DNA of 64,000 bases from assembly GCA_020137815.1 (NCBI GenBank), contig CM035350.1, positions 620,001-684,000 of the forward strand, read 5' to 3'. This document shows positions 1 through 63,987 of the stretch, piece after piece. This DNA is from Hormiphora californensis. Taxonomy: Eukaryota; Animalia; Ctenophora. The translations under genes and the position numbers were made by a program. The notes below the pieces were generated by a model. The model searched no databases, had not been told where the DNA came from, and saw only the letters and a list, made by a program, of their open reading frames with translations. How positions within the stretch are numbered: position 1 is the first letter of the stretch; each line of letters starts with the position of its first letter.

Positions 1-680
1 ATGGCGAAAATTCGGTATCCCCCTCACCAGTTCAGATGGCTTAAAAGATTCGTATCTCCCTCACAGAGTTAGAAGGCTATAATATATTCGTTATACTCTC
101 AACCAGGTTCAGAGTGTGCTAAAATCTCGTTCCCCCTCACCAGGTTCAGATGGCTAAATATCGTTATCCCCCTCAACCCAGTCAGATGGCTAAATATTTT
201 CGTATCTGAGCTCACAGGCTTCAGATGGCTAAATGAGTCGTTATCCCCCGAACTGCAATGCAGGGAAATGATCCAAACACATTGAGCAGACTGCCAACGA
301 TTTGGAGGCCCAGCGACTGAGGACAGAGTATGCGTTCAGGAAGCGAATACATGAGGTTTGTAGCATTTCTAGCAGTGTTACACAACTACACACTACTACA
401 CTAATTGAATAGGTTGTTATTGGCCCCAATGTGTTGCTAAATATTCGTTATCCCCCTCACCAGGTTCAGATGGCGAAATATTCGTTATCCCCCTCACCAG
501 GTTCAGATGGCTAAATATTCGTTATCTCCCTCACCAGGTTCAGATGGCTAAATATTCGTTATCTCCCTCACCAGGTTCAGATGGCTAAATATTCGTTATC
601 CCCCTCACCAGGTTCAGATGGCTAAAAATATTCGTTATCTCCCTCACCAGGTTCAGATGGCTAAATATTCGTTATCCCCC
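1..680 (+). repeat. 37-bp minisatellite (GTTCAGATGGCTAAATATTCGTTATCCCCCTCACCAG); degraded array 1-250 and clean array ~437-680
   Basis: Direct tandem copies are visible. The unit equals the splice-acceptor junction of the tektin exon starting at 3680. Confidence 0.9.
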
Positions 681-3600
681 GAACTCAATGCCAAAGTGGA
701 GAACTGTAAAACCATTGACTGGACGGCCTTCAAGAGACTCAAAAGAGAAAATAGCCAAACCGATCAATTCGATCTTACTGGATCTACATAATTTCTTGTG
801 TCTTCTTCAAGAACTTGTACTCAAGTAATGTCTCAAGCAATCTGAAGATCACCCGGACAAGTTGATTTCTAGCAATGCACCAACACCAGCTGAACTGGAG
901 ATCCAACAGATCATATACAAGAGGAAAAAAGAAGCACTTCTCTTTGAAATCTAACAAAAGTGCCTCCTTGATCTAATAAGGAACGAATGCTTAAAAATCT
1001 ATCTAGTGATATGAACGCTCTCACTCTTAAGCATCTAATGGCTCTCAGAACAGGTTGCTACCCATGGAATGCCTCAGTTACACCGTCTCCACAAAAAAGG
1101 TGACAAAGAGGAGCCAGACAATTACCGTGCCATAACACTCGGCAGCTGTCTTGGTAAGCTATTCTCATCATATTGCTTAGTCGCCTCATATCATTCAGGG
1201 CGAAAGTTGTCCAGATACAGCAACCAGCTAGGCTTTTGCAAAGGAGGACAAACTTCGGATCACCTCCTGTTCTGAAGACCATATTGGACAAATCTCAAGA
1301 AAAAGAGGTCAGGTGTACTCATGTTTTATCGACATCACAAAGCGCAGCTCGTTTGACCAGCAGCGGGAAGGTCACTCCTAAAAGCTAGCGGACATGGGGG
1401 TCGGCGGTAACTTCTTTCCTGTCTCCAGAATATGTACGAGGGATCAACTACGTGCATAAGGCTGGCGGAAAACTGTCTGAGTCGTTCTGCGTCCTAATCG
1501 GCACCGAACAGGGGCACCCCTTATCCCCCGAACTATTTAAAATGTTTGTTCACGAGCTATCCCATCTCTCAACGAAACACCAGGAACTTTCCCCCAACTT
1601 GACAACAAGCCAACCAATAACCTGATGGGGCGGACGACATTGTGGTCCTGGCTCTCAACAAGACTTCTTTACAGTCTCTTCTAGACACCCTGGGTCACTC
1701 ACAAGGACGTGGGAACTTGAAGTAATATTGACAAAACCCAGGTGTTAATTTTAACAAACAGGGCAGACTTCTACCGGAAAGCTATGGATTCAAGCTAAAT
1801 AACAAATCCTCAACCAACCAAGCACTATTGCTATCTGGGCTGATCTTCTCCGCAACAGGTTCCTCAAACAGCAATTGAAAACCTATCAACCAAAGGGAAA
1901 CGTGCAGTCTAGTTCTAAACGTACAATAAACTCACAGGCTCTCTCGGGCTGGAGTCTGATGAAGCTATTCGACCACCTAATTGCTCCCATCCTAACTTAC
2001 GGGGTACCGGTGTGGCTACCCACCACTCAAGCGGCAAGAGCGAGAACCGAGGAGATCATCTAGACCATAAAGGATACTTCAAGAGACTATCTAACCGATC
2101 ATTTTGAACGAGTACACTTGGATTTCTCAAATGGGTACTGGGTGTGCACAGCAAAAAACCAACACGGCAGTGTACGGAGGAAACGGGAAGAGCACCCCTA
2201 TCAATCTCGGTCCATCAGCAGTGCTCGAAATATTTCATTAGAACCCTGTCAAAAGCATCAGATGACCAAGACTCATCTTACTCGCCCTCGCCGTCGTGAA
2301 CAACGCAACTCTCACCTGGAGTGGTTTGACTTTTGGGACTCCACCCTAAGGATAGGCGGCAGAGACCAACTTGAACATCAACATGTTCACCACTGGGACG
2401 CACTGCGCAGCACCCAATCCAAACTCAGTTTCTCAACACGATTAAACAAGAGTATGGATACTCCCATACCTGGATCTACGAAGACAAGACAGAACACACG
2501 TCGCCAAACTGAGACTCGTGCTCACGACCTCCTTATCGAAACAGGTCGTTACACGGGTGACCTGCGCAATGCCGTTACTGTGTTGACAGATCAAACGCCG
2601 TACTCTCAACCAGCTACCTATGGCGGACCCATCTTTGAGGATGAAACACCCGCTCTATTTGACTGTCCCGAGTACAGGAACTGAGAAAGACACGCCAGAA
2701 ACTTCTCCAAATATCACTCAAATCAAAAGCAACATCACACATCTTCAATCCCGAACTGATCAACCACTCAACAAATTTCTGGCCGCATGTCGCACACATA
2801 GATTGAAAGTCCTGGGCCCGGCTAACTGCCTCAGGGCGAAGAACGGTTCCACTGATAAATCTTCATGTCCGGTGAAGAGTTGAGCCCACGTTTATCTAAC
2901 TCACTGCATGCTTGGGGTGGCTGTGAGGTGTGGTGTGTGTGTGTGTGTGTGTGAGTGTGGTGTGTGGCTTGAGGTATGTAGTGTTAGTTGGTGATTTTTT
3001 TTTTGTGTGAAATTGCAGTCTGTAGTTAGAGTTTAGTGGGAGGTTTTTTGGGAGTTTGGGTGAGTGAGTAGCAGGGGGGGTTGTATGCGTGTGGGTGATT
3101 GTATGGTGTGTGTTGGGTGTTTTTGTGCGTGTGTGTGCGTGCGGGGGTTTGAGTGTGTGTGTTAGGTGTGTGAGTGGGTAGTTGTGTGTGTGTGTGTTGT
3201 GTGCGTGCGTGCGTGTGTGTGTGTGTGGTGTGTGTGGTTTTATTCTTTTCTTCCTTTTTTTTTAGTCCGAACGAGGTGGTACAATTATTTATTAATTCTC
3301 ACTGTTTTTCGTTCCATTTATTTTAAACTAAACTATCCCCCTCACCAGGTTCAGATGGCTAAATATTCGTTATCCCCCTCACCAGGTTCAATGGCTAAAT
3401 TTCGTTATCCCCCTCACCAGGTTCAGATGGCTAAATATTCGTTATCTCCCTCACCAGGTTCAGATGGTAAATATTCGTTATCTCCCCCTCACCAGGTTCA
3501 GATGGCTAAATATTCGTTATCCCCCTCACCAGGTTCAGATGGCTAAATATTCGTTATCCCCCTCACCAGGTTCAGATGGCTAAATATTCGTTATCCCCCT

Positions 3601-4237
3601 CACCAGGTTCAGATGGCTAAATATTCGTTATCCCCTCGCCAGGTTCAGATGGCTAAATATTCGTTATCCCCCTCACCAGGTTCAGATGGCTAAAGATGAG
3701 TTGGAGTGGCAGCAGAGAAACACAAAACGAGAGATCGATGTTCTGATGGATGACATCAGGGGACTGAAACAGGCCATCGCCGACAAAAACAAACCCCTCG
3801 AGGTACATTTATACAGGCCTCTGGAGCTGAGTGTATTGTCAAATTGCTGTCCTAAGTTCTACCATACCACTTCACTTTCACACCAGCACATTTCTAAATC
3901 AAACTTTTGTTTAGACTTGATCAATTACCACGTGCTTGATGTGAAGTACACGGCTATAACTGGGCAACACTGTTCTAAATCAGTTACCTCAGAATTAAAT
4001 AGCATTTGTAACTAGTTCTGAGGAGGAGTTGCCTGGCAACTCAGACCATACACACTGAGCTGAGTAATAGGAGAACTGGAGTTGTGTTGCTATGGTAACC
4101 ATACCAGAAATCCGGCATAAATCGAATCTATCTCTTCTCGCGCTCCCCCTCAACTCTCACCTCTCTCCTCTCCACTCTCTCTCCTCTCTCTCTCTCTCCT
4201 ATCTCCTTCTTCTCTCGCTCTCTCGTCTCTCCTCTCT

Positions 4238-4300
<63 letters not shown>

Positions 4301-5604
4301 TCATTCTCTATAGCATCTTATTCATTATCCATAATGTCATTATGTTATGCGTATTTCACATCTTAGCTATCTAGCGAATAGAGATATCGAGTAGCTTGAC
4401 CCATACTATCTTTTCTTTTCTCAGCGATTTCTTACTTTATCTCCCTCTCTATGTCTTAACTATTCTTTCCATCTCGCTACTTCATTCTTTGTCATTGTTC
4501 TCTCTCTTTCCACCTCTCTCTCCCTCTCTCTTTCCACCTCTCTCTCCCCCTCTTTAAAACTTCCTGCAGCACCATGGAGATTATATGTGCTTGTCTGTCC
4601 GTTCGTATAACTATATGTGAAAGAAATGTGGGGAGAGAGGGGGGAAAGAGAGATGGAGAGAAAAAAAAGAGGTAGAGAGAGAGGGGAGACTGATCAAGTT
4701 GATCAAGTTTAGATGACATTGCGTTAGCAGAGGTTAGTGGTCAACCCTCCGTGACTCCGTTCGATAATTGATTGACTGGTTGCACTATGCACTGGACATT
4801 AATCGAAGCAGCGTGTGTTGTAGCTGAGTGTGTGCATGTGTTTTACCAACTCAAAAGAGAATGACAGAGAGAAAGAACGATAGAGAGGGAGATGGATTTC
4901 TGCAAGCTTTTGCAAGCACATCACACATGCATCATCAAGAGAAGTTGTCCTTTCTATCCTTCTCCCTCCCACTGCTAATCTAAACAATAAACACGTGTAT
5001 TGCAAGAATGAGGAGCAGTGAGATTGTGAGAATTGATCCAATGAATATCAGAAGGTCCCACATTACGGAGAGGTGCTACACTTCAATCATGTGTGTTCGG
5101 GGACACCTTACTACACAGCGCGCGCCCAACTAGTTGTCCCGCGCGCACCTCACTAATCTACACAAAGTGCACTTTTTCAGCACTTACCTTAACATTAATT
5201 GTGTGCAGGTTGCCGAGACGAGGTCCGAGAACAGGACCTACCGACCCCGTGTTGAGCTGTGCCGAGATGCACCTCATGATGGCCTGATAGAGGAGAAGAA
5301 TCTCCTCCAAAAGACTGTATCCAACCTGGTTGACAAGCACAACACTGCTGAGTAAGTCCTCAATCTTCTTAAATATTTTTAGAGTACACTCAATAGATTT
5401 GCTTTAAACGGCTGCACAACCTGTACATTTTCGAGTTTCGTCTATCTAAATCAACCCTTCCCTTTCAGTGATGCCCTAAATCAGCTTAAACAGACGATCA
5501 ACCGAATTGATGAGGATATAGCAATAAAGAGCGATTCCCTGGAGCTTGATGAGACCTGTATGACGAAGCGACAGAAGCTTCTCTTGGTGTCCCATAAAGT
5601 GTGA
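264..5604 (+). CDS. TEKT2: Tektin-2 (tektin B-like), 3' portion; exons ~264-355, 3680-3802, 5209-5351, 5469-5604
   Basis: GT-AG bounded, phase-consistent exons translate to IEQTANDLEAQRLRTEYAFRKRIHE / VQMAKDELEWQQRNTKREI... / VAETRSENRTYRPRVELCRD... / DALNQLKQTINRIDEDIAIKSDSLELDETCMTKRQKL. They carry the tektin nonapeptide RPRVELCRD. The first exon has an apparent 1-nt indel and an uncertain 5' boundary; the 5' part of the gene is outside the window. Confidence 0.9.
681..2900 (+). mobile_element. Decayed, 5'-truncated non-LTR retrotransposon (CR1/L2-group RT) in a tektin intron
   Basis: Frameshifted RT motifs: LHKKGDKEEPDNYRAITLGSCLGKLF, NQLGFCKG, GTEQGHPLSPELFKMF, ADD, IAPILTYGVPVW, HDLLIETGRY. 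Confidence 0.9.
3334..3694 (+). repeat. 37-bp splice-acceptor minisatellite, ~10 copies, last copy runs into the tektin exon
   Basis: Same unit as at 437-680. The final copy continues GTTCAGATGGCTAAA-GATGAG into coding sequence. Confidence 0.95.
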
Positions 5605-6340
5605 TTTTACCATTCTAAGCAGCCCAATGAACTGTCAAACCAATAGCGATTCTTTTAGAGCACAGAGTTATGATTTTGCGAGGTCACTGTAAAAAATGTA
5701 TAATACGAGCGTATCAGTCAATCGATTTTGGAAAATATCTCTAGTTCATGACTATAATAAGAACAGATGGACTCCATTCGTTGGAAAAGGAGGCCGAGGG
5801 GAAGTGACGGCCACGGCGGGCTGAAAATCACTCAACCTGGGTAGGAGGACACATGTACGCGCGAGAACCTCTACTCTGAGTTGGTTTGGCGGCGCGCGTT
5901 CCTTGACCACGCTCCCTCCTGCTGCAGTTGCGGGTCAGTTCGCACCACCAGAGGGGAGAGCGTGACGTGAGAGAGAAGGCAATCCTTTCAAAATTCAAAG
6001 ACATTCAATTGTATACAGCCAGACATACACACATTCTGAGAAGTCCTCCCTATTGCTAGATATTTCTTTCTATCTCTCACTGTCTCTCTCTTTCTATCTC
6101 TCACTGTCTCTCTTTCTATCTCTCAGTGAGAGACTCTCACTGTCTCTCTTTCTATCTTTCTCCTTGGTGGGAGGAGATAATTTATAAAAGGTGCATATGT
6201 GCACATGTAAGAGGGGGGTCATGGGGTAACATATAGCTTAGTAACACTAAAGACACTCGCTCATACTAAACAGTTGGGCACACACATATTACAATTGGCG
6301 GGGAAATGTTTATTATTCGGGGCACTGTCCACTGCAATAC

Positions 6341-28423
<22,083 letters not shown>

Positions 28424-30816: not shown

Positions 30817-32055
30817 CTAAGAGTATGTGGGCCACACAGGGTATTGTCTCTTATTATCCTCATCAGTCCATTTCGCCAGCCAGCGTCCATCCACAGAGAG
30901 AGCTCCCTCCGAGAGACACTTGGATATCATTTCAACATATTCATAAAACAGTGTGTCATTATACCCCGCCTGTTTGGGACTTATCCCCTCCATGAACCCT
31001 ATATGGCCTCCCTTGGCAGTGACCACAAAGGCCACGTTAGGGTTCCGCTCAGTGAGATGGACAGGGATGGAGCACTCGGGACTAAACACATCATCAGCAG
31101 CATTAAGTGAGAGGAGGGGTATCCTGACGTGTAGTAGTTGGCGGTGTGGGGAGAGGGTGTCCCAGTATTCCTCCACATTACTATACCCATGGGTGGGTAC
31201 CACATACTTGCTATGTATCTCCTGCACAGTCCTGCATTTCAACACTTCCTCCACATTGACCCCACTCTTCTCGAAGAGGGCCCTGTTATTACTGATAACC
31301 TCCTTGTACCTATGTGTCAGGTAAAGGTTAAATATCATGTTGGAGGGTTTACTAAGACTCCTAACACTCTCAAATATACTCCACCCTGTGCTCTGTATCA
31401 TGGCTGCTGTGATGCCGCTATCCAGCCCATATTTAGCTAGGTAATGTACCAGTGTTATCCCTCCCATACTGGTACCACCCACCACTATCGGGGTCCGGGG
31501 GTACCTGAACTTGATAGCCTCCACTGCCAACTTTAGATCCTCTAGATTCTCATACCCGTCGTATGTTTTGGGGGTGTTTAGCACAACTCCCCCTGCACCC
31601 CTGTTCAGGAAGACTACTGACATGTAGCCTAGAGCCCGGAGCTGTGTGACCCAGGTTAGTAGGTAACTCTCCTGACTGTGTCCCGCCACTCCAGGCAACA
31701 GGAGACACAGCGGCCTGTCCTCTGGAACATTCTCTGGTTGTTCAATGGGCCACTCTAGTGCTACAGAGCCCCCATCAGGCAGCTTTATGAGCTGTCGGTT
31801 GTAACTAACAGGGGGTTTAGCTTTGAAGAAGAATCTCATGAGTGTCATTGAGTGAGTGCCGGTACACCAGGGAGTGGGGAAGTAACGGCGGTACAAGGTT
31901 GGAACTTCCTCCCTCAGGTAGGATCGGAATATGCCATGGGCAATATAGACAGAGGGCTTACGGACTGCGAATATGTAGTAGTGCAGGGAGTAGGCTATTA
32001 GGAAGAGAGTGAACCACTGGAAATACCATGGTACCAGTGACCACAACCATTCCAT
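30817..32055 (-). CDS. ABHD3: ABHD1/ABHD3-like alpha/beta hydrolase (YheT family), intronless CDS, 412 aa
   Basis: N-terminal TM anchor; PTPWCTGTHSMT, LPDGGSVALEW, LLPGVAG, nucleophile elbow GTSMGG, NAADDVFSP, GGHIGF (Ser-Asp-His triad). Confidence 0.9.
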   Translation of the reverse strand: MEWLWSLVPWYFQWFTLFLIAYSLHYYIFAVRKPSVYIAHGIFRSYLREEVPTLYRRYFPTPWCTGTHSMTLMRFFFKAKPPVSYNRQLIKLPDGGSVALEWPIEQPENVPEDRPLCLLLPGVAGHSQESYLLTWVTQLRALGYMSVVFLNRGAGGVVLNTPKTYDGYENLEDLKLAVEAIKFRYPRTPIVVGGTSMGGITLVHYLAKYGLDSGITAAMIQSTGWSIFESVRSLSKPSNMIFNLYLTHRYKEVISNNRALFEKSGVNVEEVLKCRTVQEIHSKYVVPTHGYSNVEEYWDTLSPHRQLLHVRIPLLSLNAADDVFSPECSIPVHLTERNPNVAFVVTAKGGHIGFMEGISPKQAGYNDTLFYEYVEMISKCLSEGALSVDGRWLAKWTDEDNKRQYPVWPTYS

Positions 32056-33382: not shown

Positions 33383-34205
<823 letters not shown>

Positions 34206-34732
34206 AAAAGAAAAAGGTATCTGGTATATAATCACCTCCTGCAAAAAATCGTTTTATATCCCTCGCCTGTAATAGCTAATATTATCCTCCCTTGCTATAG
34301 GTATTGTCACTTAGTTAATGGAGGGGGAGAAAAAAGGGGCAGAGGGGCTGAATAAATGACGAAGGAGGAAAATGAGAGAGGGGTCTGAGAGAGGATTCTG
34401 AGTAAGGTAAATAGAAGGAAATAAAATGTGTGAGGATGAGTTTCTCTAAAGACATGACAAATGTGACACATTAGGAGAGCTGGCATGCTAATGTGTCTCG
34501 TAATGACGAGGATGCTGCTAATGAACATCACATACGGGAAATATACCGGGGAGGGGGCTGTGGAGAGGTGGTAACAGGGAGAGGGGGACCGATAAGGAGG
34601 GGATAAGAGGGGAGACTGGGGATGAAGAGGGGAAAGGGGGCGGGCAGGGTACAAATAGTAAAACACGTTACTCAATATAATTGAAAACCAGGTACAAAAA
34701 AACTTTGCTTACAGGTTGAAATGGCAATTAGT

Positions 34733-35527: not shown

Positions 35528-36787
35528 TTAATTTACGTAGGGAAACGGGAAAAGTGGGTCGGTATAGTTCGTATAATTAAACAGCATAAAATCTGGTTTG
35601 AATTTTTCATACAGTTTATCCATCAGATATTTAGGGACCTTTGGAAACCACCTCCGTGCAAGAATCGTGGACCTCTCCACTCTGGGATCGCTGGAGGAAT
35701 CATAAGGACCCGGCACGGACACGTCAGCATCTTTCTGCATAGCGAAATGTTTCAAAATCTCCTTACTTTGAACCTGTGCGTGTTCCAAGGCACCGATGAA
35801 GTTGTAATTAACTTCCGACAGACTGAGCATGTTATATTGAGGCTGGAAGTGAACATTGATACCCTCTATAGGGTCCTCTGCTAGATATCTCAGGAACTCC
35901 AGAAATGTAGGTCTGAGTCCCCTTTTAAACAACTCTCGCAATGTAATGGAGGGGTCCCGGTAGCGCTGGAGAATATCTAGAGATACTCTCCCTCCCTGCC
36001 ACTTCTGGAATCTCTCCGGGGCAAACTTGTCATTGTAGCCAGATACAATCCTAGTCCAGGGGTTTCTAATGACTGTGAAGGTGTATTTCCCGTTCAGATC
36101 CATATATGGGTATCTCCGTAGAATGTTAGAGATAGAGATGCTATTGATTATATAGTGGACCTTGGGGGTCGGTTCATCCTCCCAGAACATCTTCTCTTGA
36201 CGGAGAATGGTGAACTTCCAGTTAGTACAGCCAGATTTGGGGATACCCGTGTATATGATATCAGCCCGATTAGAAAAATAAGTTTTGATCTGGGTAAGAT
36301 AGTTTACAGTATACCAGTCAGTAAAGGGTGGACTGGATAATCCGAGAAATCCCAGGACTTTGTAAACGTTTTTCCTGACCCACTCCTGCGAGGGAACCTC
36401 CGGTGTGTATGAAAATGTCATCTCCGTTTCGGATTTGTTTACAAAAATAGAAAACATCTCCGAGTCGGTGGTAGTGGCCACAGAACTCTCACTACCATAT
36501 AACAGGGTCTTATGTTGTTTAGAGGAGCTAGTAAATGACTCAGTTGGTTCTTTCTCAAGGGTAAGGTGTTTAAAATTGTTCAAATCAGGTTTACTTCTCT
36601 CAAAGAATTTAGTGTTTATAAGTTGGTTGGTGAATAGTGCTGGCTCATCAGAAACTACCCTGTTATTTGTAACTGCTGAGTGTTGGACCGGAGCTGAGAC
36701 AAAACTAAGTGAGTTGAACTGCATGAATATGTAGAGAGCGAATAACAGGAAGAGAATGAAGGTGACTGCGACACCAAGCCTTGCCAT
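35528..36787 (-). CDS. Golgi carbohydrate sulfotransferase (Sulfotransfer_2; CHST8-14/HNK-1ST-like), intronless, type II membrane protein
   Basis: MARLGVAVTFILFLLFALYIF TM segment; 5'-PSB YTGIPKSGCTNWK; 3'-PB VIRNPWTRIVSGY; HFQPQ; C-terminal LYEKFKPDFMLFNY. Confidence 0.9.
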   Translation of the reverse strand: MARLGVAVTFILFLLFALYIFMQFNSLSFVSAPVQHSAVTNNRVVSDEPALFTNQLINTKFFERSKPDLNNFKHLTLEKEPTESFTSSSKQHKTLLYGSESSVATTTDSEMFSIFVNKSETEMTFSYTPEVPSQEWVRKNVYKVLGFLGLSSPPFTDWYTVNYLTQIKTYFSNRADIIYTGIPKSGCTNWKFTILRQEKMFWEDEPTPKVHYIINSISISNILRRYPYMDLNGKYTFTVIRNPWTRIVSGYNDKFAPERFQKWQGGRVSLDILQRYRDPSITLRELFKRGLRPTFLEFLRYLAEDPIEGINVHFQPQYNMLSLSEVNYNFIGALEHAQVQSKEILKHFAMQKDADVSVPGPYDSSSDPRVERSTILARRWFPKVPKYLMDKLYEKFKPDFMLFNYTNYTDPLFPFPYVN

Positions 36788-37343
36788 ACCAGTTCCGATA
36801 AGATTGATGTGCCACCATAAACCTAAAATATAGATTAACACTTCAATTTGAGACGATTACAAACACTACGTTGTAGTTGATTTGTAATGTAATTTATGCA
36901 TTTAATAGACCACTCACTAGTGAATAAATAGTAGAAAAAATGGTGCCAACGCACTCTCTAAACTATCACTTTCTCAAGTGGATTATATTACATTGTCTTT
37001 ATGATTTTTTTAAATTTTCCTCGCAACAACCGGAGCAACTTTTGCACTTTGCAACTGTATAATGTATTATGGTACACTATTCAGACAAGAAAAGAATAAA
37101 TTAATTGGTCACTGAAGCGTCAAAAATCGAGCTAGGAGTTTCTTGGCGTGGAACTGCGGACAAACTGTCAAAATTGTTGAGCAAATTTTAAATAATAATA
37201 ATAATAATAATAATAATGACAGTTTATATCCCGCACTGACACAGTTTATATACAGACAACTCGTTTTCCTTAATTTGAAAGGGACTGCAGTAGACTGCCT
37301 GCTCCTAGCACGGTTCTCTGATAACGGTGAGTTAGTGGGGAAA

Positions 37344-38300
37344 CTATCCCACTTGGATAACGTTATTACGGATGAAATAGCAGCCGTCAGGATCTTCTGA
37401 TCGTATCCGTTTCAAAGTGGACCTTAGAGCTTTTTGCTCCTTCAGTTCAGAGGGCGTAAGATCCGGAGAGAGATAAACAGCCGAAAACTGTTTGGAGTCT
37501 TTGAGGTTTCGTGCTTTTTTGAGAATCGCCAGGAGAGTCGCTCTCTTCTCCAGGGATACTAAGAGCGGTCTAGGGCGCTTCTCATTTCTTTCGCCGATGC
37601 GTTTCATCGTTGTCACTTTCGGTTTCTCTTTTAATTCCTCAAAAAGTTCGTCTAAAGTAGTTTTAGCTACTCTATCCGTTGTTTCTGGAAGACCAAACAC
37701 AACCAGGTTCTTTTCTCTTTCGGGCTGTTGGACGGGAGTAGGGTGATTCACTGGTAGTGGTTTTCCCACTTTGGCGGAGGTTGCAGCACATTTCTGTGCG
37801 AGCACAGTAGAGTAGGCTTTCACCTTCTGCACCGATGCTGTCACTGTACTGAGTTGTTGCTTCTGGTGGTTGATAACCGTTTGCTGAAGCTCGATCACGC
37901 TAACCCGATGGCGGTCAAGTTCTTCTTTGCATTCACGCAGCTGCTTCTCGAGGTTTTCCACACTGATAACAGTTTCAAAATTGTTCATTGTTGTTCGGGC
38001 AAGTTTCATACTGGAGAGAAAAATACGCGAAGTAGCCTCAATCATTTCACTCGTAGTTCGGTCCTTTAGACAATGTCTGAAGTACGAACCCCAGTGATTG
38101 CAAGGCGAAGCTACGCTGTCGTTGGTTAACGTTGAATCGGGTGCAGCTTGGATAGATCTATAACATTGAGTAAACTGATCTGGTGTGATGTTGGGGTCAT
38201 TGTCCGAATTCAACCGGTAAACTTCAGAAACAAAGTCATCTACTGTCTCTTCTAATCGTTTTATCATAGGGTTATCGCCCTCGTACTTCGCTTCCGACAT
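37344..38300 (-). CDS. LINE ORF1-like protein (coiled coil plus RRM/CTD, CR1/L2-type), ~318 aa
   Basis: Coiled coil LEKQLRECKEEL...; NLVVFGLPE, RIGERNEKRPRPLLVSL and VYLSPDLTPSE parallel NVTIVNIPE / PRPLIVIL / WVNPDLTRAE in ORF1 of the intact LINE at 53838. Confidence 0.85.
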   Translation of the reverse strand: MSEAKYEGDNPMIKRLEETVDDFVSEVYRLNSDNDPNITPDQFTQCYRSIQAAPDSTLTNDSVASPCNHWGSYFRHCLKDRTTSEMIEATSRIFLSSMKLARTTMNNFETVISVENLEKQLRECKEELDRHRVSVIELQQTVINHQKQQLSTVTASVQKVKAYSTVLAQKCAATSAKVGKPLPVNHPTPVQQPEREKNLVVFGLPETTDRVAKTTLDELFEELKEKPKVTTMKRIGERNEKRPRPLLVSLEKRATLLAILKKARNLKDSKQFSAVYLSPDLTPSELKEQKALRSTLKRIRSEDPDGCYFIRNNVIQVG

Positions 38301-38353
38301 TATCAACGTTTCGTCTTTCTGCCCTTCGGGGCTGTTACATCGGATTCATCTTC

Positions 38354-38394
38354 CTCAAATTAATTTGTTTAAAGTAGTGTTGAAAAGTTTGAAA
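38354..38394 (-). other. Genomic copy of a ctenophore-type spliced-leader exon (TTTCAAACTTTTCAACACTACTTTAAACAAATTAATTTGAG)
   Basis: Matches, as recalled, the published Pleurobrachia/Hormiphora SL minus its first few nt. It is followed by GAAGATG, not by a GT donor, so it looks like a post-trans-splicing junction and not an SL-RNA gene. Confidence 0.8.
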
Positions 38395-38484: not shown

Positions 38485-41400
38485 GGCGCGATTATAATCT
38501 GGGTGCCTTGCAGCCTGTTTACAGGTGCGCGCTGCCAAAAGAGTATAAAGTCGGATTTTTTGAAGTTGTCACCCCCCTCTTCGTGCGCGGAATGTTTTTG
38601 CGCGTCACATCACATGTTAACGTGTGGTGTGCGCGTCAAAATTGATAAATTTCACATGCGCGGTCATTTTGGGGTGACAACTTCAAAAAATCCGACTTTA
38701 CTTAGACCGACTTTTTTCAACCGGCTATAGCCATGGAACCACATGGCCGATTTGTGTAAACTAAACGGTATCAGTTAGAGAATCGATAGCCCTAACCGGT
38801 AACCCCAAACCAAACCCTAACCAGACCCTAACGGATAGCCCTAACCCGTCGCGCGCGCCAAAACTACGAATTGTTAGCAATGAAAGGCACCCAGATTTTA
38901 ACGTTTTCCGGGTGAAGCCCCCTAGAAATTTTTAACGTTTTCGCGACAATCAGAGAGCGCTTGAAAAGTTGGCAAAGGCAGCGCTTTTCAACTTGAAAAG
39001 TGGAAACAAAAAGAGTCTTTAAAAAAAACGTCGTCGTTGATTTTTAAAAAATTTCGTCATCAAGTTTGGCCCGCGGCGCGCGTTACGGATCTGCCGTGCA
39101 GCGCGCGCGCGGCTTGACGATATTTTTTGTTTTTTTAAATCTTATCTTAAAATTTTTGTTTTTTTTGCAGTGTCTTTTAATTTTCAAACAAAAAATGACT
39201 GCTGTCTGCTTGCGCGACAGCTGACTGAGTGCTGAGTCCTTGAAATGCGTTGTATGGGCAGGAGCTACCACATTAAAGCGAGCATAGCTCTGCTCACTTT
39301 TATGCCGCATGCGGTACCTCCTGTGGTACCTCTTGCAGAGGTGCGGTGCCAAAACTCATGTGCTTCCAGACTCCAGCAGTCCAAATTTGTAACAATATCC
39401 GAATCCTTTAAAAGCGGAACTGTTATTTGTCGGATACCAGATCGAGTAGTGTCAGCGGAATCAACTACTTAGTTCTATAGGTTTTTGGTTAAATGGCGTC
39501 TGGCCTGTCAGCCGTCAGGCCAATGCTCTAACAGCGTCAGGCCGTGTTGTGTTGGTAGCTACACACAGTTTTTTTTCTAAAAGGGTGTTAAAATGGGATT
39601 ATATTAGATTATATTAGATAACAATATCAATATAAAAATACCGGTCTCCCATGGGGGAGACACACAGTCAACAGTGTAAATCATTGTTAGTTGTTTGGTT
39701 CAACATTAACATGACAGACGTTGTAAGACGAGTGGCTGAGTGCTAACCTTATTCTAGAGTATTGTCTACATCTACTTAGTTGGTAGTTAAACATTTTATC
39801 CGGTTTCGAATTTGTTCTGAAATGGAAAGTTGGCCGGTTGTTACTTGTAACCCATGTTGATTTAGCTTGTAGAATTTGAGCTGAATAGTAACATGATCTA
39901 ATAGTTCCAATGTGAAATTCGCCTCCTACTCCTGTTGAATGATAGTTAAGCATGCCAAAGAGATATTATATGCGTTGTAGGTCTTCTCATCGAAACTATC
40001 GTTCACTTTACCCACAATTGCTCCCCATGTTTATTTAGCTTCGTCCTGTAGAATTTCAGGGTTTATTTTAGTATTTGATCCTAACTCCAGGTTTCCATGC
40101 TTGCAAAGGNNNNNNNNNNNNNNNNNNNNNNNNNNNNNNNNNNNNNNNNNNNNNNNNNNNNNNNNNNNNNNNNNNNNNNNNNNNNNNNNNNNNNNNNNNN
40201 NNNNNNNNNAAAACTTAGCAAATCTTCGAAAAAAAAGAACTCGTCAGGCCCGGTTATGTTTGTTTAAAATACCGGGGGGGTGCGTTTAAAACGAAAGTGC
40301 TGCGTTTGGAAAAAAAAACGTCGGCGGGGCGGCGGGTAGGGAGGTGCGCGGGGCGGCTTGACGAGATTTTTTTTGTTTTTTAAATCTTAAAATTTTTGTT
40401 TTTTTAAATCTTAAATTTTTTGTTTTTTAAATCTTAAATTTTTTATTTTGCAGTGTCTTTTAATTTTCAAACAAAAAAGGGCGCGGTTATAATCTGGGTG
40501 CCTTGCAGCGTGTTTACAGGTGCGCGCTGCCAAAAAAGTACACCTAAAACCACTTAGACCGACTTTTTTCAAACGGCTATAGCCACGCAACCACATGGCC
40601 GATTTGAGTAAACTAAACGGTATATGATAGAGAATCGATAGCCCTAACCGATAACCCCAAACAAAACCCTAACCCGACCCTAACAACAGCCCTAACCCGT
40701 CTCGAACGCCAAAATCGATGAAATGTTAGCAATGGAAGGCACCCAGATTTTAACGTTTTCCAACAAAAAATGACTGCTTGCGCGATAGCTGACTGCTGAG
40801 TCCTTGAAATGCGTTGTATGGGCAGGAGGCAGGAGCTACCACATTAAAGCGAGCATAGCTCTGCTCACTTTTATGCCGCATGCGGTACCTCCTGTGGTAC
40901 CTCTTGCAGAGGTGCGGTGCCAAAACTCCTGTGCTTCCAGACTCCAGCAGTCCAAATTTGTAACAATATCCGAATCCTTTAAAAGCGGAACTGTTATTTG
41001 TCGGATACCAGATCGAGTAGTGTCAGCGGAATCAACTACTTAGTTCTATAGGTTTTTGGTTAAATGGCGTCTGGCCTGTCAGCCGTCAGGTCAATGCTCT
41101 GACAGCGTCAGGCCGTGTTGTGTTGGTAGCTACACACAGTTTTTTTTTTCTAAAAGGGTGTTAAGATTATATTAGATTATATTAGATAACAATATCAATA
41201 TAAAAATACCGGTCTCCCATGGGGGAGACACACAGCCAACAGTGTAAATCATTGTTAAAGTCCGTTTCAAGCGACTTGACCCGTAATTCTTGGAATTTGG
41301 CGCATTGCGCGTGTATTTACAAAGGGGAAATCCTGAATTTCCAGGAATCTCAGGTCAAGTCGTTTGAAACGCACTTTAGTTGTTTAGTTCAACCTTAACA

Positions 41401-43175: not shown

Positions 43176-63987
<20,812 letters not shown>

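Follow-up and report, generated by a model that had tools for sequence, protein, structure and literature searches.

A spliced-leader-headed, ORF1-only LINE-type element in the ctenophore Hormiphora californensis

How does a spliced leader, a sequence added to messenger RNA by trans-splicing, come to stand in genomic DNA directly in front of a retrotransposon reading frame? The question was raised by a minus-strand unit of about 1.2 kb (38394 to 37191) in a 64,000-nucleotide stretch of the Hormiphora californensis genome (contig CM035350.1, positions 620,001 to 684,000; hereafter the window, to which all positions refer), where a leader-like 41-mer precedes an open reading frame (ORF) of the kind found first (ORF1) in long interspersed nuclear elements (LINEs). 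The parts ascribed to this unit by the initial annotation, namely the 41-mer, its direct junction to the body without a GT donor, the untranslated regions (UTRs), the ORF, the (ATT)9 tail and the lack of a second frame (ORF2), were all recovered at the positions given in Table 1. The unit is best read as a single complete copy belonging to a high-copy, ORF1-only family of LINE type, which likely arose through a trans-spliced RNA and a borrowed reverse transcriptase.

The 41-mer agreed at 41 of 41 bases with the 3' portion of the published 44-base H. californensis leader (PMC8527503), which bears out its earlier assignment as the ctenophore spliced leader. With a tolerance of three mismatches, a single occurrence of a 25-nt leader piece was found in the window, whereas 100 shuffles yielded no occurrence. 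Metagenome contigs were scanned with 29 leader bases and yielded 34 distinct loci, including 23 that were mRNA-like, with the leader at the contig end (0-7 bases before it) and a non-LINE frame after it; host-protein Pfam matches were found in 21 of these and no match in two. Another locus (L022) was a spliced leader RNA (SL RNA) gene, in which the leader is followed by a GT donor within a 778-base repeat adjoining 5S rRNA genes. The sequence thus has the properties of a leader exon, being found at the 5' ends of unrelated mRNAs and ahead of a GT donor in its gene, while the window copy fails as an SL RNA gene as it has no GT and none of the L022 gene flanks. Within L022 (263-381, 707-735, 1041-1159 and 1485-1513) the ctenophore SL RNA gene alternates with 5S rRNA genes. 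Viral contigs and prokaryote genomes contained no leader match and no relative of the element. Genomic leader copies number 718 in H. californensis and 491 in Mnemiopsis, and their nature is not explained in the available text of the paper that reports them (PMC8527503).

Repetition of the unit was evaluated in four DNA runs (X1, X4, X5 and X8, three with one species label and one with another) from the summed contig depth over 37220-38307 relative to the 3' flank, a measure that shows repetition and is not a copy number. Depth over the body was 1,420-9,958 in X1 (4-31 in the flank), 21,574-153,723 in X4 (0-778), 28,048-340,084 in X5 (85-390) and 309-16,156 in X8 (0-7). The element is a high-copy family. 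The 3' UTR bins were as deep as the ORF bins in the four runs, so that most copies of ORF1 would be followed by this UTR instead of an ORF2. Contigs with full-length ORF1 homologs were mostly 1.1-1.9 kb long with a few up to 3.5 kb; among the 25 homologous clusters, the full-length members for which contig data exist lay on contigs of 1.0-2.0 kb. No longer fused relative of ORF1 was present among 7,986 candidates, which is weak evidence. A complete relative was found at the metagenome locus L032, where a 461-base flank is followed by the leader, an ORF1 with 37% identity to the window ORF1 across 187 residues, a short UTR, (AAT)n and another flank, and a frameshifted relative at L016, where the contig stops about 100 bases past the stop codon. 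The high depth, the depth of the 3' UTR, L032 and the occurrence of the junction in three DNA runs support the initial proposal of a non-autonomous, ORF1-only family whose transcripts would be trans-spliced.

Contigs crossing the leader/body junction were obtained from X5 (25 and 26 bases on the two sides, exact), X4 (25 and 28 bases, with four differences) and X8 (36 and 20 bases, and 23 and 20 bases). In all three runs some copies had one extra CAG at the junction, which reads as the pattern of a tandem splice acceptor. In two X5 contigs another head, about 42 bases long (loose end at 38354-38358), stood before the UTR and had its last five bases in common with the leader. In frame, this second head encodes VKLFIE, and the same residues precede the UTR-encoded stretch in the database protein P0043, whose N-terminal extension starts with FQTF, as the leader does. 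The second leader-like head was present in two database proteins, P0003 and P0043, and was not in the window. Both proteins had the CAG form, which was absent from the listed X5 second-head contig; with each head found with and without CAG, all four combinations occur. The N-terminal extension of P0003 had been considered as a native outron, an interpretation dropped in view of the second leader-like head in P0043 and at the X5 loose end. The second head is possibly a second type of ctenophore leader. Multiple ctenophore leaders were reportedly described by Derelle et al. in 2010. The motif TTTYAG directly followed the leader in L016, L032 and a further LINE-type locus (L020) and was missing from the window copy and from the LINE-type locus L031, and examination of the 150 bases that follow each of 11 heads revealed no relict second leader. 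The heterogeneity of the junction, with CAG present or absent, two heads, and TTTYAG kept or lost, follows splice rules and is read as a signature of splicing.

The leader head is not special to the window family, as two-ORF ctenophore LINEs in the metagenome contigs share it. Ten of the 34 leader-bearing loci were LINE-type, two-ORF and ORF1-only alike. Five of them (L007, L008, L015, L020 and L034) were leader-headed with a second frame matching an APE endonuclease, L003 and L021 had ORF1s 31-61% identical to those of that group, L016 and L032 were kin of the window ORF1, and L031 was classed as LINE-type by its UTR alone, its ORF being unlike the others and cut off by a tandem repeat. In eight loci the contig extended more than 15 non-leader bases beyond the leader on its upstream side; seven of these were LINE heads, one was the leader gene and none was a host gene. 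The flanks of ten elements showed no likeness to those of the leader gene (300 nt upstream and 120 nt downstream) or to each other. As a separate observation, L003, L007, L008, L015, L020, L021 and L034, which are two-ORF or zinc-knuckle-ORF1 LINEs with at least two unrelated ORF1 types, start exactly with the leader.

The 318-residue product of ORF1 had no significant Pfam match and a profile search of solved structures also returned no sequence match; interferon-gamma matches (E 0.01) were dismissed as chance. Its identity as a LINE ORF1 rests on the predicted fold, since sequence profiles gave nothing significant. An AlphaFold model built with 19 sequences (mean pLDDT 66, pTM 0.38) had a helical N-terminus, a long helix at residues 114-174 that is likely a coiled coil, and well predicted RRM-like and C-terminal domains at residues 198-317. 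All 11 Foldseek matches of this model at E<=0.001 were human LINE-1 ORF1p chains, and the protein is predicted to be a LINE-1 ORF1p-like RNA chaperone. Twenty-five clusters homologous to ORF1 were found at 40-96% identity, and the nearest Atlas clusters were unnamed and mostly ctenophore, judged from the few members with a record. Differences between the window copy and contigs of the four runs were counted from the 40 best-supported of 238 difference rows, less four rows at 38191-38198 beside indels; within the ORF 16 of 24 were synonymous relative to an expected 23% (p 6e-6), a rough sign that ORF1 is under purifying selection.

The features of the element and of an intact LINE in the same window are collected in Table 1. 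An upstream ORF (uORF) of one to four codons stops at one aligned column in all five related UTRs (window, L016, L020, L031 and L032). The uORF and a small predicted GC hairpin are kept across these LINE-type elements, whose ORF1s are very different, and may possibly serve in translation control. Folds of the 3' UTR had no clear gain over shuffles, with z values of -1.9 for the window element and 0.4 and -0.9 otherwise.

Table 1. Positions of the element parts and of an intact LINE in the window of contig CM035350.1
Feature	Position	Strand	Remarks
Spliced-leader exon copy, 41 nt, 5' end of element	38354..38394	-	lacks first few leader bases; matches published leader and L022 leader exon; once in window
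Leader/body junction, putative trans-splice site	38353..38354	-	no GT donor; extra CAG in other copies (X4, X5, X8)
5' UTR, 53 nt	38301..38353	-	similar UTRs in L016, L031, L032; weaker in L020
uORF, four codons	38335..38349	-	aligned related UTRs
Predicted short GC hairpin, 3' of uORF stop	38321..38332	-	predicted in 4 of 5 related UTRs
ORF1, 318 aa, uninterrupted	37344..38300	-	ORF list and translation; predicted fold
3' UTR, 126 nt, no ORF2	37218..37343	-	depth as high as ORF
(ATT)9 tail, 3' end of element	37191..37217	-	contig depth falls two to three orders past tail
Intact two-ORF LINE with (ATT)n tail	53838..58070	+	endonuclease and reverse transcriptase domains; no leader

These observations can be accommodated by a cycle in which the element transcript would undergo trans-splicing at a tandem AG acceptor, so that either of two leaders could form the head and CAG could be present or absent behind it. 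The spliced RNA would be translated and its own ORF1p would coat it, which would explain selection on the ORF. The ORF2 product of another, (ATT)n-tailed element of the CR1 group would then prime at the tail, and reverse transcription would stop a few bases short of the cap. The intact LINE in the window is a possible kind of partner; sharing the tail and lacking a leader, it demonstrates no more than the presence of such enzymes in this genome, and a CR1-type partner stays conjectural.

Several observations weigh against this account. No listed contig reached 31 bases to either side of the junction, the length set for bridging, probably as a result of contig breaks within the highly abundant leader; the presence of the junction in genomic DNA is upheld by the shorter crossings in three DNA runs. 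The joint of the window-copy leader with its upstream flank was likewise bridged by no contig among those listed. The single RNA run considered here (X13) contributed one low-depth UTR contig ending before the junction and no leader-joined RNA, a lack of coverage that is no proof in either direction. No target-site duplication was found at the element, the best shared word being 5 nt and far from the ends. At the DNA level the intact LINE has only the (ATT)n tail in common with the element. The pLDDT and pTM values of the ORF1 model count here too, along with the low whole-query TM-scores of its fold matches (0.22-0.28). Finally, the first eight bases of the body are similar to the SL RNA intron start with one T missing (BLAST 48/50 against L022), although the CAG form and the second head, together with the relatives, suggest that the likeness is due to chance.

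That last likeness is what speaks for a different origin, in which a single template switch, as in SINEs (short interspersed nuclear elements) headed by small nuclear RNA, took the head from an SL RNA gene or from SL RNA itself; the head would then have lost its GT and been inherited from that point, perhaps as an internal promoter. We regard this as improbable, as unrelated LINE groups join the identical leader, with the same exon end, to different next bases, the extra CAG and the second head occur within the window family itself, and it is TTTYAG and not intron sequence that stands behind the leader in the relatives. The leader could alternatively be the target of a site-specific insertion into an SL RNA gene and no part of the element. 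NeSL and CRE/SLACS elements insert into leader genes by means of a restriction-like endonuclease. Such elements are documented (PMC4640811) and SL RNA genes are arrayed here as well, as L022 demonstrates, but all ten tested flanks were unlike those of the leader gene and unlike each other, and the leader-headed two-ORF elements encode an endonuclease of the APE type; the explanation is refuted for the window copy and scarcely credible overall. Little more can be said for a retrocopy of one domesticated ORF1 gene, the alternative raised by the initial annotation, or for a cDNA chimera in the assembly. The ORF is intact and under apparent purifying selection and the assembly has flaws nearby (N gap at 40111-40210), but depth was two to three orders above that of the flank in four DNA runs, junction contigs came from three DNA runs and two species labels, and the tail is a microsatellite as in an autonomous LINE and not poly(A). 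Given a repeated family, an origin of this kind is very unlikely.

The preferred reading, copying from a trans-spliced RNA, leaves the question of how headed copies are transcribed. Trans-splicing discards all upstream sequence, so a headed copy would be without any upstream promoter. Read-through from a host unit could transcribe such copies, and the RNA would be re-spliced at the final AG of the leader or at the next YAG. That promoterless headed copies are re-spliced, with the head renewed in each cycle, is a tentative proposal that we hold at somewhat less than even. A nearly as plausible, though still doubtful, alternative is that activity is confined to a small number of master copies that have a promoter and an outron, and that headed copies are dead ends, like processed pseudogenes; this departs from the best reading in its last step only and to that extent shares its confidence. 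A tandem acceptor in an outron-bearing master would yield the same CAG and two-leader patterns, and there are many sites at which the window copy does not have the majority letter. In most eukaryotes GAG works poorly as a splice acceptor, which agrees with master copies and counts against re-splicing at the last AG of the leader. Conversely, no outron copy was seen in the 24 of 92 loose ends listed and the N-terminal extensions of homologs read as leader-like, the many intact ORF1 subfamilies (53-93% identity) suggest many active lineages, and TTTYAG retained behind the leader in three relatives would permit re-splicing of headed copies. Recycling is further favoured by the absence of stacked relics and by the position of the window copy: some 400 bases downstream of it, in the same orientation, is a sulfotransferase frame that has no introns and carries a TTTTAG of its own. 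A broader extension, possible but held with less confidence than recycling in the window family, is that ctenophore LINEs at large, autonomous and ORF1-only, are promoterless, with the leader 3' end doubling as a trans-splice acceptor and read-through transcripts recapped at full length. If true, most of the hundreds of ctenophore genomic 'leader copies' would be retrotransposon heads and not leader genes.

Elsewhere in the window, long single-exon frames on the minus strand encode an alpha/beta hydrolase (30817-32055), a sulfotransferase (35528-36787) and a G protein-coupled receptor (45779-46621), each with YAG shortly before a start codon; these frames are likely trans-spliced and possibly co-transcribed. 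Plus-strand exons were assigned to a tektin (3584-5601), a Yippee-type protein (20311-20616) and an ADAM metalloprotease (49657-62195). The intact LINE lies within an intron of the last, and some 28 bases ahead of its start codon there is a T-rich stretch that ends in AG. A short element resembling a miniature inverted-repeat transposable element (38546-38700) is bounded by terminal inverted repeats of 30 bases that match perfectly, and its depth was very high in each of the four DNA runs. The 100-N gap at 40111-40210, whose two sides are similar in sequence, and a run of 828 A at 33388-34215 are likely assembly flaws.

HAL1 (half-L1) elements proper derive from L1-clade elements and have a poly(A) tail and a target-site duplication. 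The element described here is from a ctenophore, ends in (ATT)n and not poly(A), has no target-site duplication that could be found, and has a host spliced leader as its 5' end and a UTR of 53 nt; of the two, only HAL1 is known to descend from the L1 clade. Its organisation is therefore best read as HAL1-like and not as HAL1 proper. Like the HAL1 elements of mammals, which are ORF1-only LINE derivatives, it encodes a single ORF1p-type frame without ORF2, matches L1 ORF1p in predicted fold and would need a reverse transcriptase in trans (PMC5753468). A genomic leader beside a retrotransposon has also been noted in parasitic flatworms, where 597 (PMC12582326) and 6 (PMC5832876) leader-bearing loci of LINEs or long terminal repeat elements were read as integrated trans-spliced transcripts. 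The text available mentions these loci, which have partial leaders, in passing and describes no family anatomy, no junction variants and no ORF1-only type. Dinoflagellate relict-leader retrogenes are similar in that a DNA-encoded leader marks a reverse-transcribed trans-spliced RNA; as far as the available text goes, their cargo is host genes and relics lie behind a new leader (PMC12014239), unlike the seven LINEs among the eight flanked loci and the 11 relic-free heads found here. NeSL and CRE/SLACS are likewise non-LTR elements linked to a spliced leader (PMC4640811), but in the present case the leader would travel with dispersed copies, and the flanks compared are not leader-gene DNA. In Hydra a leader is present on about 30% of the long reads from transposons (PMC12220107), so that animal transposons use trans-splicing there as well; that evidence is at the RNA level, and DNA-encoded heads are unmentioned in the accessible part of the paper. 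The accessible parts of PMC12460157, PMC4664967 and bioRxiv 10.64898/2026.05.21.726589 held nothing on a comparison of leader-headed LINEs. No description of leader-headed ctenophore LINEs or of a leader-headed ORF1-only family was found in the literature covered, with most subscription papers and Repbase outside the search. The earlier view that the combination is undescribed in ctenophores holds to that extent, while the flatworm loci make it less isolated than supposed. New here are the ctenophore host and the ORF1-only form; leader-bearing retrotransposon loci and ORF1-only LINEs were already known.

LINEs must rebuild a complete 5' end in each cycle, and the known answers are internal promoters and self-cleaving ribozymes, with examples in trypanosomes. 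A leader head with variants that follow splice rules points to host trans-splicing as another answer, in an animal, and at 1.2 kb the element is small enough for full testing. As each head records the leader and acceptor used by its RNA intermediate, insertions could be read as a fossil record of trans-splicing. Many of the 718 and 491 ctenophore genomic leader copies (PMC8527503) may be LINE heads, which would matter for the annotation of leader genes and of shared first exons.
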